Positions 37,774 to 63,159 of a DNA stretch of 64,000 nucleotides are shown here, piece after piece. How positions within the stretch are numbered: the stretch's first letter is position 1; the number at the start of each line of letters is the position of its first letter. Source of the stretch: Schmidtea polychroa (lineage: Eukaryota); the NCBI GenBank assembly GCA_044892525.1, contig CM097885.1:29018001-29082000 (forward strand), given 5' to 3'. The notes beneath the pieces are model-generated. The model saw only the letters and a program-made list of their open reading frames with translations, made no database searches and was not told the DNA's origin. A program made the position numbers and the translations under genes.

Positions 37774-37939
37774 TATTAAAAAAGACAGTTTGAATACTAT
37801 AAATCAGTAATATATTGATGTTTTTTGATACCAACGAATTTTCAGCACTGCCTTTTTCAAGTGAATGAAGGTAAAATTGAAGGCAAAAACTCAATGGAAA
37901 AAATAATCAGTGAAGAAATTGGAAAAAAAAGTTCTTTTA
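37774..37939. mobile_element. Short retroposed insertion (repeat family H1) with internal inversion and 12-bp TSD
   Basis: TTGCTAGAAAGC is duplicated at 37762-37773 and 37940-37951. Removing the insert restores the transposase reading FNLLESIYTFF. Confidence 0.75.
37832..37864 (-). ncRNA. Minimal type I hammerhead-ribozyme-like motif (family H1)
   Basis: Minus strand UCAC-UUGAAAA-A-GGC-AGU-GCU-GAA-AAUU-C-GUUG; stem I partly mismatched. Confidence 0.55.
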
Positions 37940-38499
37940 TTGCTAGAAAGCATTTATACGTTTTTTTGCCACAACGCACCGATGGTATATTTTGGAAAAG
38001 CGTTTTATAGAGAACAATAAACATTTTACAGTTAAAAAATATTATCAACAAGATGGTCCTGCAGAGCTGATGCAGTGAAACCAGCTCGTACTGGATATAA
38101 CAATATTTAAACTTCATCGCTTGAAATTGCTCAAGATTTAACACAGAAATGTTCAGTTAAGCATGAAGCGCAGAGGAGTTAGCGAATAAAATCTTTACAT
38201 TGGGATTTGTTTTAATGATGGTTATTTGGGATAAAATCATATCAAGAGTTAATGCAAGTAGTAAATCATTACAGGATCCTTGTATTTTCTTTTCAATGGC
38301 AGAAATATTTCTAATAATTTATTCATATATATTAATACTTTAGGGAAATAATTTCTAAACATCGAAGAAGAAGCTTTAAAAATATCTGAAATAAAATCCT
38401 ATTCAGACTTAGAGAATGGACAAAGGAAAAGAAGAAATCTGTATTGTAACGAAGAGGATAAAATTGCTGTTATTTAACTTTTGACAATTTGTCTTAGAA

Positions 38500-38937
38500 C
38501 AGCGCTTCTCAACCTTTCTGTTATTGCGACCCAGTTTACCAACGTAAATATTCTCGCGCCCCTTTTTTTGATCAATCGAAAATTATAGTGTCAATCATTA
38601 ATCAGATCACATCTAAATATAGAAAAAGAACTTAGGGTATCCATATCTGGTATTACTCCTTCATTTCAAAAACTTTGCAATGAGAAACAGGCTCAAGGAA
38701 GTCATTAATTAATAACATAACATATTTAACTGGTATTTGTTTCATACTAATAAACTTAAATAATAAATATAATAAATTATTTATTGGTAATATGTAATTA
38801 TAAACTGTATTCTTATTTTAAATATATATATATATATATTAATTTTTTAATTATGCAATTTCTTTTATTTAACCTTCAACAAAGTTTTAATTTTGTTTTT
38901 AAATATACTCGCGCGCCCCACAGGTTGAGAATCGCTG
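38500..38937 (+). mobile_element. Buster-type non-autonomous hAT element
   Basis: TIRs cagcgcttctcaacc / ggttgagaatcgctg; TSD tcttagaa / gcttagaa. Retains a transposase C-terminus (LCNEKQAQGSH*). Confidence 0.85.
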
Positions 38938-39364
38938 GCTTAGAACTAAAAACTCATAGTAAGAGTTACAACGAAATTAACATTATTTTTCAAATTATCC
39001 TTTCTTATGAATACCTCGATGACATTTCCTCTATTTGCGAGCACACAGGGGAATTAAAAAATTGTTATAAAAATGATATTGATATTAACGAATTAGATGA
39101 GGAATTATTACAATTTTTATGCTCTGTAAAAGTGAGAATTTAAATTCCCTTATAAATATGCTCCAGTTTATAAAAACAGCGCACGTTGTATCTACTTTCA
39201 CTAATGTTTAAACTTTGTTGCGAATATATTTGACATAACCCATTACAAATGCTACATGCGAAAGATATTTTTCAGTTATAAGATTTTTATAGAATTATCT
39301 TAGAAATTCTATAAATCATTCGAAATTAAATTGTTTAGCTGTATGGTGTAAGAATGCTCTAGAA

Positions 39365-58729: not shown

Positions 58730-61265
58730 AACTTTAAAAATATAATAATTTTATTTTTAAATTTAGCCAAAATTAAATTTTCTCTAGCAGTTATTGGCAT
58801 TAAATTATTTGATTGTTGTGTAAAACTATATAATTTGTGTATTTTATCATTCTCTTTAGTAAATCTTTGCTGTCCATAATTTTCTATTATTGTTAAACCA
58901 GTTAATTCATATAACCAGTTAATTCATCAATTTATTATTTACCCTGATGGACCATGAAGTGAAGGTAATTTTACTGAACTTAGATCCATTACAACTTCAA
59001 TGTTATCTTACTTCCATAAACGACTGAAAGATTCAATAATTGTATTTGTAAAATAAATTATAATATGGAAAGTAATAAAAACAACATTCAATAGATTTCT
59101 TCGGTTAAATTTTACAAGTTTTCAATTAATTTAAATTTTTTTATTTATTTAAACAACATACATATAGAAAACATATTTATTATTCCTATGCCTATTTATC
59201 AATGAGTTGACACTAAAAGTATGTCGATAATTCTTTACTGATTCTAGACGGATTATTAAAAAGATTAATTAAGCATAATAATAATAATAATTATAATAAT
59301 TATAATAAGCATAATAATAATAATTATAATTATTATTATATTATTATTATTATTATTATTATTATTATTATTATTATTATTATTATTATTATTATTATTA
59401 TTATTATTATTATTATATATAATTAATAATTACTATACAATATTAATTAAAATTGAATTAATATATATGAGATTCATAAATATATTATGTAAAAGTTAAA
59501 AAATAATAAATGTAATTCTATACTAACCTGGAATAAACTTCTGACAACCGCCATCTATAAATGATTAAAAAATATCGGTCTCAAATTATCAAATCTATAA
59601 ACTTGAATTGAGCTAGACTTCGACCCCTAAGCAAACGAACCAATAATTAATGCAATTTAACAAGTGGTTTTGCGTGTCGGTATGTGCGTTGACGTACGGT
59701 TTGTTATACGAAAATTGACTCGGTCAATGGTACAAAAACCGTGTTCTGCACATAATATTATAAGATTGTTGTTATTGTCACTGTCGGTTTGTGTCATTCA
59801 ATTATAAAAATAATAATAATTATATTAATAATGAGTTCACAATACATTTATATGCTCAGATATTTCTTTATCTCGTGAAAATTAAACCAATTATTATTAT
59901 TATTGATTTAAGGGCTACACATTTAAACAAAAATTTATAATTAAATTATAATTATTTGCATTATCATAAAACTGTTTATTATAATTAATAAATATTGTTA
60001 AATGTCAAATTCTGAGACATCATTGCCAAGATCTCCTTATTAATATCAAATAGTTAATTTATTTAAATATTTGATATTATTTTTATTGTTAATTTTTATT
60101 TAATCTCTGATTTTATTTATTCATAATTATCCAAATAAAATTTTCCATTATATTAGTTTATCATCCATATCACAATTTTACCAGATATGATTAGACCTGA
60201 TTTCTGTACAAGACACTGTAATTGCACTACGGAGGTTTCTTAGAATAAGGATTTGAAGTTCCCGGTGGTGATGGTGAGATGGGAGCCCATTCTCAACTTA
60301 GTGCGGCTAGTGTTGGCTAAGGCCGTACGATAGATGCAAGACGCACTGGCTGTCTCGTCTTAAGCGAGTGGAACATGAAAATTTGAGATGGCACAATACC
60401 CAGCACTGATGGTGATGTCAGTTGATGTCGTCCACCAGGTGATTGGAAGATTAAAAGAGAATGTATGAAATGATGTTAAGTTTGTTTGGGAATGGAGGGA
60501 AAGGAAAGCCCGAATCGTTTGACAAGAAAGTTGAAAATGATCTAATTAGTAGACACATAGAATAAATAAATTATAATTGAAAGTTAATATCCTATATTAA
60601 AGGACCAAAAATAGAAATCGGACATAGGGGTGTTCTCTAATTATAGGTTACTAGAGGGAGCACACTTTTTACTCATTTAATAGAGTCCCAACGTTGAAAT
60701 TTCATCAGGTATTATATGGTAACAATCATTGTATTCTAGATCTGCCTATAACCCACCACTTTTAGTGATCTTCATACCAATCAAGAAACTGGAAACAATA
60801 TGATCATTACTTCGTTCAATGTATCTGTGAAGACCGTCAAAACGCAATGCAAGAACTAATCAAGATTGAATATCGAAAATCGCGGCTTGATCACCATCCA
60901 ATCAAAAGAAAGCAACAGCTTAAGAAAGGTGTTTATGAAAACACAATACTTGATATAATAAGCAACTTTTGTTCTTTATATTTTACTTTACAATGAAAAT
61001 GTCTCGTTTAGTTTCAATTATTACAATCGAAATTTCATCTTGTCCAATTTTTCTATCAAATATTTGTGTCTAATCTTTTTGTTTCAATCTTGTTTTTTTC
61101 ATTCTCACTTAAATAACTTTTTGACAAGAATTCATTGTAGTAAATACACTATTAGAAACAAACAATTTCCACTATAAATCAATCGATTTTTGTTGTTTTT
61201 TTGATGAATATCAATTTTTCATTTTTATCAAGATAATAAAAACAATTTTACAATATTCAAACATA

Positions 61266-61713
61266 TAATAATAATAATAATAATAATAATAATAATAATA
61301 ATAATAATAATAATAATAATAATAATAATAATAATAATAATAATAATAATAATAATAATAATAATAATAATAATAATAATAATAATAATAATAATAACAA
61401 TAATAATAATAACAATAATAATAATAATAATAATAATAATAATAATAATAATAATAATAATAATAATAATAATAATAATAATAACAATAATAATAATAAC
61501 AATAATAATAATAATAATAATAATAATAATAATAATAATAATAATAATAATAATAATAATAATAATAATAACAATAATAATAATAACAATAATAATAATA
61601 ATAATAATAATAATAATAATAATAATAATAATAATAATAATAATAATAATAATAATAATAATAATAATAATAATAATAATAATAATAATAATAAAAATAA
61701 TAATAATAATAAT
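61266..61713. repeat. (AAT)n microsatellite with AAC interruptions
   Basis: Direct reading. Confidence 0.95.
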
Positions 61714-63099
61714 ATTAAAATAATAAATTAAAATTAATAAAATTAAGCTATTATATTATAAATATTAAATAAAATATAACTAATATTTTTGTTAATGGTA
61801 AGCTCATAATAATTAAAAAGTTTTCTGATTAATTATTAACTTTATCCTTAACATCATTTTCGCATGGCTACCATTCTTGGGTTGGTATTTCATCCAGCAC
61901 AATACTGCCCGGGCTCGCTCTTCAGGCAGAATTCGCCGTTGTTCGATATTTAGAAATCCGAAATTAACTTTTTTAAAATTCTTTTTCATCATTTAATATT
62001 ATGAACCAATAAGTGTACCATATATTTCTCAAGGGATAAAACTTCGATCGAACTCTCCCAATATTAAATTGCATGGGTTTAAAGATAAGATTCACGAAAG
62101 GATGAATAATTGATCTATTGAAATGTCGCCAAGCATATTCAAGGGGGTTATCCCAATGAGAATCAACATCCCGATAACATATCATAAGGTTGCTTCAGTC
62201 ACCTCTTTCTTTTTAGGTTTAAACTTGAGAATTTCATTGTGGAAATATCTAGGGGAACAGAATCAATGTTTTGTTGTTTTCGGAATAAATTCGTTTTGGA
62301 GATTGGTTGGTTGGTACTCAAGTTCCTGAATTTCTCTTATAAAGGATAAAGCACGTGTTGTCATATAGAGAATTTGGTTGTACATTAACTAGAACTAGTA
62401 ATGTCGTGTCCAACGCATTTTGCAAACGTAATAAAAATGATGAGGAAATTAAGAAAAATAATAAAAATGTTTCTCATATTTAACATAATTTTAAAATAAG
62501 TAATATTTGTTGCTTCATTATTTAAACAAACACTTTTTGCAAATTATTTTACATAAAAGTCAAAAAATGTACTTTTTAAATGTATTTTGGACATAAAATC
62601 ACAACAATAATCAAAATTTTAACAAGATAATCCGATATATTTTGTTTAATCGTAATCACTTTTAAACCTGACAATAAAGCGCCAAAACCGATCTGTATAA
62701 AATTATATTAATAAAAATTCACTTAACGTGGCCACTTTTCCTGTTTATGCCCTTAGTAAACTATATGGTTAATCAAGCAGTATTTATTTACATTGAATTT
62801 GACAAGATTCAGCAAATGCACTACTGTATTACGAAAAACTTTTACCCTGTTTTCACGCTATAAGCCACTGACTTAAAAGAGTTTTAAAATATTTTTTTAT
62901 CTGAAAAAGACTTAATTAAGGCCAATGGCTACTAAGCCTTTTTTCAGATAAAAAAAAATTTCGTTACTGGTAAAAAAATAGAATGATGTTTATTAATTAA
63001 AAGATCTAATCTTTGTATTATATGGAGTTGAATTCATTCTCATTATCACTATTTATCAGAATTGCTTAACATTCTGACCATAACAAGTGTCGGAAATGA

Positions 63100-63159
63100 T
63101 ATGAATCAGTAAAGATATCGATGTTTTTTGATATTCACCAATTTTCGGCACTGCCTTTT
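63100..63159 (-). repeat. Repeat family H1 copy, truncated within the hammerhead-like core
   Basis: atgaatcagt...gatatcgatg...aattttcggcactgcctttt matches the other H1 copies; the UUG part of the core is missing. Confidence 0.6.

Follow-up and report, generated by a model that had tools for sequence, protein, structure and literature searches.

Four copies of a short dispersed repeat in a 64-kb stretch of the Schmidtea polychroa genome (the window) have been flagged as bearing, on the minus strand, a motif that resembles a minimal hammerhead ribozyme. What kind of element is this repeat, and what does the motif do in it? A sequence-only reading had proposed an abundant retroelement, either a solo pseudo-LTR (pLTR) or a retrozyme-like unit. 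We conclude, with a probability of roughly 0.88, that the repeat, called H1 here, constitutes the pseudo-LTR end, ~145 nt long, of a Penelope-like retrotransposon (PLE) that persists as thousands of 5'-truncated copies, and that it opens with a minimal type I hammerhead motif with a U3-A8 core pair, for which slow, dimeric or protein-aided self-cleavage is predicted in the source elements only.

The H1 features of the window are summarized in Table 1. All four flagged copies are members of a single repeat family, with a similarity well beyond chance (self-BLAST E values of 2e-9 to 2e-21), and the positions first given for them are the low ends of the minus-strand motif, three as tabulated and the fourth at 63135-63159. 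These four copies are real, but the list was incomplete: the window contains five H1 pieces, and both a copy without a ribozyme and an inverted 3' piece, each on the plus strand, had been missed. The inverted piece beside copy 1 is a 5' inversion, which is typical for Penelope-like insertions. The family does have a hammerhead-type motif, as had been claimed for these copies, but none of the four flagged copies has it intact; the minimal-hammerhead descriptor is passed by 0 of 4, and helix I of copy 2 retains 1 bp. The four window copies are likely to be inert. A scan of the window against Rfam at E<=10 returned no hammerhead family, only 7 chance-level matches.

Table 1. H1 pieces, their hammerhead motifs and the adjoining AAT array in the 64-kb window.
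Feature	Positions	Strand	Basis
H1 copy 1, 5' part of pseudo-LTR, subfamily b, stops before 3' tail	37774..37866	-	BLAST to full-length copy L179, 88% over 93 nt; nhmmer
Decayed minimal hammerhead of copy 1: intact core, G10.1-U11.1, helix I only 2 bp	37832..37864	-	
H1 3' piece, inverted and lying head to head with copy 1	37887..37939	+	BLAST to L179 pLTR, 87% over 53 nt, E 1e-10
H1 copy 5, 3' part only, without ribozyme	42088..42155	+	self-BLAST, nhmmer, BLAST to L179
H1 copy 2, entire ~145-nt pseudo-LTR, subfamily a	45015..45163	-	self-BLAST; nhmmer 132 bits
Minimal hammerhead of copy 2: intact core, stem II, AAUU; helix I 5' strand altered	45127..45159	-	
(AAT)n array at 3' end of copy 3; AAT common to array and element's own end	54522..54602	-	
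H1 copy 3, entire pseudo-LTR, subfamily b	54601..54741	-	nhmmer; BLAST to L179
Hammerhead of copy 3, decayed: stem II changed and first core strand broken	54704..54737	-	
H1 copy 4: starts within hammerhead (without first core strand, G17), stops early	63099..63160	-	nhmmer

The repeat is as abundant as had been proposed. From sampled stretches we estimate about 17,600 H1 insertions genome-wide (range 11,600-25,600). Searching 1.2 Mb of evenly spaced genome stretches with nhmmer gave 35 matches and a reversed control gave 0; a genome-wide search found 1,245 exact intact U3-A8 motifs, with 0 in the control. The consensus originally drawn from the window, UCAC-UUGAAAA-A-GGC-AGU-GCC-GAA-AAUU-C-GUGA, is the majority motif of the whole family. 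The association with microsatellites is real but modest (4 of 35 matches vs a background of 2.9%, p=0.019). Two window copies had been described as ending against AAT repeats. This holds for copy 3, where the element's own end has AAT in common with the array; in another copy (L169) the element carries on as TATAATAATAC. Copy 2 runs out in an ATAAT that belongs to the element, with different sequence beyond it.

The identity of H1 follows from what lies upstream of longer copies. Thirty loci were selected using H1 together with 100 nt of upstream DNA; 21 of them have sequence in common at >200 nt still farther upstream, and this shared sequence translates to reverse transcriptase (RT) and GIY-YIG motifs (in Pfam, RVT_1 falls below its cut-off at E 2e-6 and GIY-YIG clears its own at E 8e-7). 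Conversely, of 30 loci chosen by RT DNA only, 16 have a sense-strand H1 after the endonuclease, two of these loci being duplicates. Locus L179 is a whole H1-ORF-H1 element, with H1 at 215-357 and 3076-3208 as direct pseudo-LTRs flanking the RT and GIY-YIG frame. H1 is therefore the pseudo-LTR of a Penelope-like element, which bears out the solo pLTR branch of the sequence-only reading. Read from broken copies, the element has a single ORF with RT and, at the C-terminus, a GIY-YIG domain in a unit of about 2.86 kb; none of the 30 RT loci has an intact full-length ORF, the longest open stretch being 442 aa. Subfamily a is linked to the ORF as well (L204, 77% DNA identity to L179), and an upstream ATG within H1 is in frame in one of three copies examined.

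Two other placements were considered. The element resembles Hydra clade PLEs in DKT, CxCx5C and a length below 3 kb; it does not match them in its CxxC with two His and its RT4 of the GLAMG type, as that clade is marked by a missing CCHH motif and a divergent RT4. Nor is H1 part of the Perere-like PLE whose fragment lies in the window (6324-6821, minus strand), since that family has its own C3-G8 ribozyme: in the same genome, a C3-G8 motif follows the endonuclease in 12 of 20 Perere-like loci, and these loci contain two H1 matches, neither at the 3' end of the family. For Perere_Smed, 42 of 45 residues matched.

H1 opens with a motif that fits a minimal type I hammerhead, predicted to be self-cleaving. 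The motif lies on the sense strand of the pseudo-LTR and shows hammerhead core positions 3-9 and 12-15.1, U16.1, H17 and the 3-8 base pair. Stem II has 3 bp with a 3-nt loop and helix I is short; the bulge after A9, G10.1-C11.1 and a palindrome at 15.2-16.2 (here AAUU) are traits listed for PLE minimal hammerheads (PMC4209133). The minimum-energy fold of all three intact copies tested is the hammerhead secondary structure (-7.5 kcal/mol); in the predicted homodimer, helices I and II are swapped and helix III is not formed. U3 is found in 49 of 51 and A8 in 56 of 59 sampled copies, so that the U3-A8 pair is fixed in the family. A C3-G8 sister of H1 was rejected, as only 1 of 34 C3 variants also has G8. 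The compensatory U3/A8 swap recognized in the window is present but not new: the same UUGAAAA-A letters have been printed for a Schistosoma PLE (PMC4209133), and U3-A8 ribozymes have been reported as active in vitro (PMC3088659).

Conservation of the motif was assessed between subfamilies and among copies. The majority sequences of subfamilies a and b, drawn from 7 and 15 copies, agree throughout the motif (0 of 33 positions changed), while 17 of the 104 remaining H1 positions differ (p=0.012). Both retain every catalytic position together with the bulge, the palindrome, G10.1-C11.1 and a base other than G at 17. Some stretches outside the ribozyme that adjoin the motif are likewise unchanged, so this constraint could partly reflect a promoter or protein binding. 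Within the family, stem II and inner helix I yielded no compensatory change, and the sole paired double difference is in outer helix I (A.A vs U.G). Excess conservation of the core across genomic copies, an expectation of the sequence-only reading, is not clear: 5.9% of core positions vs 7.6% of the rest are changed (39/661 vs 364/4773, p=0.13), in copies recruited by a profile that includes the motif itself and with columns whose second allele reaches >=30% left out. By site class, p is 0.01 for A/T sites only and 0.24 for G/C sites. The absence of a clear excess is what is expected of dead copies, and it does not refute a function in the source elements. Taken together, the structure, the location in the pLTR and the constraint between subfamilies back the hammerhead interpretation, as a predicted ribozyme.

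The likeness to a hammerhead is very improbable as a chance product of AT-rich DNA. Such matches do arise, with 2 to the descriptor over 5 shuffles of 800 kb and 2 unrelated U3-A8 matches in the real sample, but the H1 motif is placed as PLE hammerheads are, on the sense strand of the pLTR ~100 nt from its 3' end (PMC8557442, file S2); moreover, the Perere-like loci carry their motif after the endonuclease, and S. mansoni(4) appears in print with an identical heptamer and bulge. The 1,245 exact motifs and the constraint between subfamilies likewise speak against chance. A more serious alternative, which we regard as unlikely without being negligible, is a catalytically dead relic, retained by the source elements as a promoter, as a site bound by protein or as a signal for reverse transcription. 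The U3-A8 core, the 3-bp stem II and the absence of a helix III loop would fit a relic, as would the poor in vitro cleavage reported for PLE minimal hammerheads (PMC4209133), the unaffected insertion of PAc ribozyme mutants (PMC11167929) and the likely derivation of copies from uncut RNA described below. The retention in both subfamilies of every feature listed above argues against it, as does the reported activity of U3-A8 ribozymes.

The ends of the copies bear on how they were made. Of 90 copies, 38 end 0-16 nt upstream of U3 and 7 extend further; 5' ends placed by anchored alignment are noisy, and several decayed copies (e.g. L215, L223, L303, L310) stop early and inflate the downstream bins. 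In a separate sample, 10 of 15 copies stop at this 5' cliff, L087 having been removed from the count because it extends into the ORF across a deletion. The 10 nt across the predicted cut are kept in 1,334 of 1,641 copies, a slightly high figure since the second pattern is two letters shorter. The 11 nt upstream of helix I are kept in only 227 of 1,633 copies vs 1,078 for the 11 nt downstream; the upstream pattern fits only some source variants, so this value (14%) is a lower bound. Very few copies end at the predicted cut; a fold-back class starting 4 nt after it comprises 8 of 90 copies, 7 of them with an inverted piece. Since most ends lie within ~16 nt upstream of the core and few at the cut, the template RNA was likely mostly uncut, and it may begin just before the ribozyme. 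At the other end, 16 of 35 nhmmer matches stop at model positions 141-144 and 10 of 35 at 95-103, two preferred 3' ends ~50 nt apart.

The sharp 5' boundary and the great excess of short copies would also be expected if H1 were an independent non-autonomous element of SINE-like or retrozyme-like kind, whose own short masters were mobilised in trans by the Penelope-like protein, possibly via circular RNA; non-autonomous PLE derivatives have been described (PMC8557442; bioRxiv 10.64898/2026.07.22.740005). We consider this improbable. Subfamily a with an AGU loop, subfamily a with a UGU loop and subfamily b are all found with ORF-side upstream sequence, so short and long copies share sources. Head-to-tail, same-strand multimers are absent from the 27 sampled insertions (opposite-strand pairs occur in 8), which tells against the retrozyme-like branch of the original proposal, although rare arrays may exist elsewhere. 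Monomers from a circle cut by the ribozyme would start at the cut, and the H1 copies do not.

Among known systems, the Cercyon PLE hammerheads of S. mansoni (Cervera and De la Pena 2014, PMC4209133) are close to the pseudo-LTR of our element. As reported, they too are type I without a helix III loop, with the palindromic 15.2-16.2, the bulge after position 9 and G10.1-C11.1, and they lie in pLTRs that are mostly single truncated copies; the S. mansoni(4) row has UUGAAAA plus A as in H1. Differences are a stem II of 6-8 bp vs 3 bp with a 3-nt loop, the AAUU palindrome and different PLE family of H1, and its copy number, roughly ten times the ~1,300 reported for S. mansoni. The protein points to PNL2_SM, whose endonuclease and linker are identical to those of L136 at 72 of 90 residues (~80%, by eye) when its row as given by Craig et al. 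2021 (PMC8557442, Fig. S2), immediately below the Nematis rows, is used. A Cys linker before GIY-YIG and a CCHH motif of the PNL2_SM/Nematis type are present, and PNL2_SM is close to the H1 element, not identical. PAc/Poseidon_Ac (Frangieh et al. 2024, PMC11167929) is reported to share a ribozyme near the ORF start, two 3' ends (the 'tail'), AT-rich targets and uncut RNA as the main template, but has a C3-G8 core and an ORF start inside the ribozyme; the available part of that account mentions no 5' cliff immediately before helix I. Non-LTR retrozymes (Cervera and De la Pena 2020, PMC7229834; bioRxiv 10.64898/2026.07.22.740005) are likewise described as short, non-coding, dispersed, PLE-related and with a type I hammerhead; their repeats of 150-450 nt are arrayed in tandem and come with canonical ribozymes and circular RNAs, whereas H1, which is minimal, is not arrayed in this way and runs collinear with an element that bears an ORF. 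In a search of openly accessible papers, none was listed that describes the H1-family ribozyme or the 5' cliff; Lunse et al. 2017 may already list the motif.

By analogy to PAc (PMC11167929), target-primed reverse transcription would start inside the RNA near the ORF start, at AT-rich nicks, on a mostly uncut template, and the cDNA would usually end just 5' of helix I. Source elements are predicted to cleave as dimers via the AAUU palindrome, after C17; the window copies and thousands of others are 5'-truncated remnants, some with inversions. We tentatively suggest, as something possible rather than probable, that the ~95- and ~145-nt copies are run-off cDNAs of an RNA that starts 7-16 nt before the core, primed internally near the ORF start of the same 5' end, with the uncut ribozyme copied whole.

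Because the U3-A8 pair is already in print for PLEs, H1 is a new example of a known thing: a second flatworm-type example of the minimal hammerhead with U3-A8, whose stem II is very short and whose PLE family is a different one, and to that extent a matter of cataloguing. The role of PLE hammerheads is described as an open question (PMC8557442; PMC11167929). With ~17,600 copies, an abrupt 5' cliff and few starts at the cut, H1 bears on this role in a way that can be checked by RNA 5' ends. If the run-off interpretation is true, solo pLTRs would record the 5' end of the transcript genome-wide, and the fold-back class would record the smaller share of RNAs that were cut, so that the action of the PLE ribozyme in vivo could be read out at genome scale.

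The four positions flagged in the window by the sequence-only reading proved to be the low ends of a single minus-strand motif belonging to one dispersed repeat family of ~145 nt, H1. A fifth H1 piece, which lacks the ribozyme, and an inverted piece are also present. The proposed consensus occurs exactly 1,245 times in the genome and a control pattern not at all. When 1.2 Mb, sampled at even spacing across the genome, was scanned with a profile of 26 distinct genomic copies, 35 H1 pieces representing 27 insertions were recovered, and the reversed control gave no match; the genome-wide estimate is ~17,600 insertions (95% interval 11,600-25,600). 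The minimal hammerhead descriptor rejects all four flagged copies, each of which carries a lesion. Two copies were said to end against AAT repeats; a true AAT array is found at copy 3 only.

Features of the window (window coordinates)
Feature	Position	Strand	Remarks
H1 copies 1-4 (low ends of motif)	37832, 45127, 54704, 63135	-	
H1, fifth piece	42088-42155		
H1, inverted piece	37887-37939		
Second PLE fragment, 5'-truncated	6200-6830 (match 6324-6821)	-	42/45 residues identical to Perere_Smed by eye
Sodium/hydrogen exchanger frame	11634-13598	-	uninterrupted, 654 aa; PF00999, E 2e-56; no intron within
Pogo/Tigger-type transposase remains	31218-32951	+	one stop; PF04218, PF03221, PF03184
DNA transposon remains, DUF4371 frame	40463-41431	-	hAT-like
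DNA transposon remains, short frame	1511-1843	-	no Pfam match
Other repeat families (self-BLAST)	53396-53913 + 58076-58591		
Other repeat families (self-BLAST)	9855-10507, 47603-47881, 52340-52904		
Other repeat families (self-BLAST)	18858-24393		
Other repeat families (self-BLAST)	2422-2560 + 3961-4096		

Upstream sequence is common to some of the sampled H1 copies. Of 30 loci retrieved with an upstream-extended copy, 21 continue >200 nt further upstream, into a frame with GIY-YIG and reverse-transcriptase (RT) motifs, as judged by translation and Pfam; relatives carry PF00078, PF26215 and PF01541. When RT DNA alone was the query, sense-strand H1 followed the endonuclease in 16 of 30 loci. 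At locus L179 H1 flanks the frame on both sides, in a unit of ~2.86 kb between microsatellites, and the second H1 subfamily is also linked to the ORF (L204, L195). H1 is therefore the pseudo-LTR of a Penelope-like element (PLE), and the linked PLE ORFs that the sequence-only reading suggested seeking do exist. The 3' end of H1 adjoins the ORF start; an ATG within H1 is in frame in one of three copies inspected, and a second ATG lies 7 nt past the usual H1 end. By eye, the element shares 72 of 90 endonuclease residues with PNL2_SM as aligned in Fig. S2 of Craig et al. (PMC8557442), where the PNL2_SM row is placed beneath the Nematis rows. Together with the Perere_Smed match of the second PLE fragment, this points to a planarian as the probable host. 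DKT, the CxCx5C linker and small size are common to the H1 element and the Hydra clade, from which the element differs in keeping the CCHH motif.

The intact motif has a helix I of 4-6 bp, then U3-U4-G5-A6-A7-A8-A9 and a bulged A, stem II (GGC/GCC) with a 3-nt loop, G12-A13-A14, an AAUU palindrome and C17. This hammerhead structure was the minimum-energy fold in all three intact copies tested. The bulge, G10.1-C11.1 and palindrome, which PMC4209133 gives as traits of PLE minimal hammerheads, are all present, and Hydra-clade ribozymes described in PMC8557442 include a 3-bp stem II, as in H1. The U3-A8 pair is fixed in H1, G8 occurring in 1 of 34 C3 variants. Six of these 34 variants share C3, U7, A8 and a UGU loop (UUU in one); they may represent a minor lineage that multiplied while its 3-8 pair was mismatched. 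The U3/A8 swap is not new: PMC4209133 describes U3-A8 minimal hammerheads, with ~1,300 hits, in Cercyon PLEs of S. mansoni, its supplement shows a core identical to that of H1 (UUGAAAA plus A), and natural U3-A8 ribozymes with in vitro activity are reported by Perreault et al. (PMC3088659). Retrozymes are tandem and canonical; H1 has the non-canonical U3-A8 core and formed no same-strand multimers in 27 sampled insertions, so a retrozyme-like nature is not supported. An Rfam scan of the window gave no hammerhead match, which counts against the hammerhead reading. The searched literature (with Lunse et al. 2017 and Repbase outside its scope) holds no description of an H1-family ribozyme or of the 5' boundary discussed below.

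Excess conservation of the core among genomic copies was not clear (changes in 5.9% of core versus 7.6% of other positions, p=0.13), as dead copies would be expected to behave. Between the subfamily majorities (7 and 15 copies), 0 of 33 motif positions differ versus 17 of 104 others (p=0.012); neighbouring stretches are also partly unchanged, which counts against the hammerhead reading. So do two further results: the suggested stem covariation did not emerge, stem II and inner helix I showing no compensatory changes, and the homodimer is predicted to exchange helices I and II rather than III. Stem II, GGCAGUGCC, is nearly self-complementary, and two H1 copies are predicted to pair there over 8 bp; such pairing could compete with or stabilise an active dimer.

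Other repeat families of this genome carry hammerhead motifs too. The Perere-like PLE family is very abundant (9,949 candidates), and 12 of 20 loci carry a canonical C3-G8 minimal hammerhead ~310-330 nt past the query end, which is absent from the window copy. A further dispersed family has a canonical-looking type I hammerhead with CUGAUGA, a 4-bp stem II and an ACUAGU palindrome; the retrieved loci contain it at 10 places (L079:374, L076, L159, L183, L190, L225 and others), in single copies often terminating at TA/AAT runs. A fourth family, C3-G8 with a 5-bp stem II and helix I CAC/GUG as in H1, was seen at 11 places (among them L071:6997, L082, L011, L093, L160, L188, L243, L260, L268 and L315).

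H1 3' ends fall mostly at two sites ~50 nt apart (16/35 and 10/35). They resemble the PLE 'tail', which Frangieh et al. (PMC11167929), working on the element PAc, link to two internal reverse-transcription start sites. TA or AAT runs occur in 4 of 35 3' flanks, against a background of 145/5,000 (p=0.019), and in 18 of 90 in a second sample (first 90 of 533 matches). Inverted pairs make up 8 of the 27 insertions in the 1.2 Mb sample, and same-strand multimers none.

That second sample, the first 90 on contig 1 among 533 genome matches to a pattern downstream of the ribozyme, also served for 5' ends. Among these 90, 38 ends fall 0-16 nt upstream of U3, a sharp boundary (the cliff), and 7 extend further upstream; 5 copies map at most 2 nt from the predicted cut after C17, not above the neighbouring density. 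Genome-wide, the next 11 nt upstream are kept in 227 of 1,633 motif copies and the next 11 nt downstream in 1,078, while the 10 nt spanning the cut are retained in 1,334 of 1,641. With the cut site retained and few ends lying there, uncut RNA is the likely template of most H1 copies, in line with the in vitro results for PAc (PMC11167929). A smaller class (8 of the 90 copies, 7 inverted) folds back and starts 4 nt past the predicted cut; a local ATATC/GATAT inverted repeat is enough to account for it, with no need of cleavage, so it is no evidence of cutting. At locus L283 a copy starts at or beside the cut, directly after telomere-like GGGTTA/TTAGGG repeats. All three H1 sequence types are found in long copies, an argument against the short copies having a master of their own. 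The cliff may be the RNA's 5' end, or may mark a point at which the enzyme drops off as it reaches the highly AT-rich 3' UTR (G+C 14% vs 27%); that the short copies record the 5' end of an RNA with its ribozyme uncut is a tentative reading, which we consider somewhat improbable. H1 itself is real and abundant: it is the pseudo-LTR of a Penelope element resembling PNL2_SM and carries an already known hammerhead variant.
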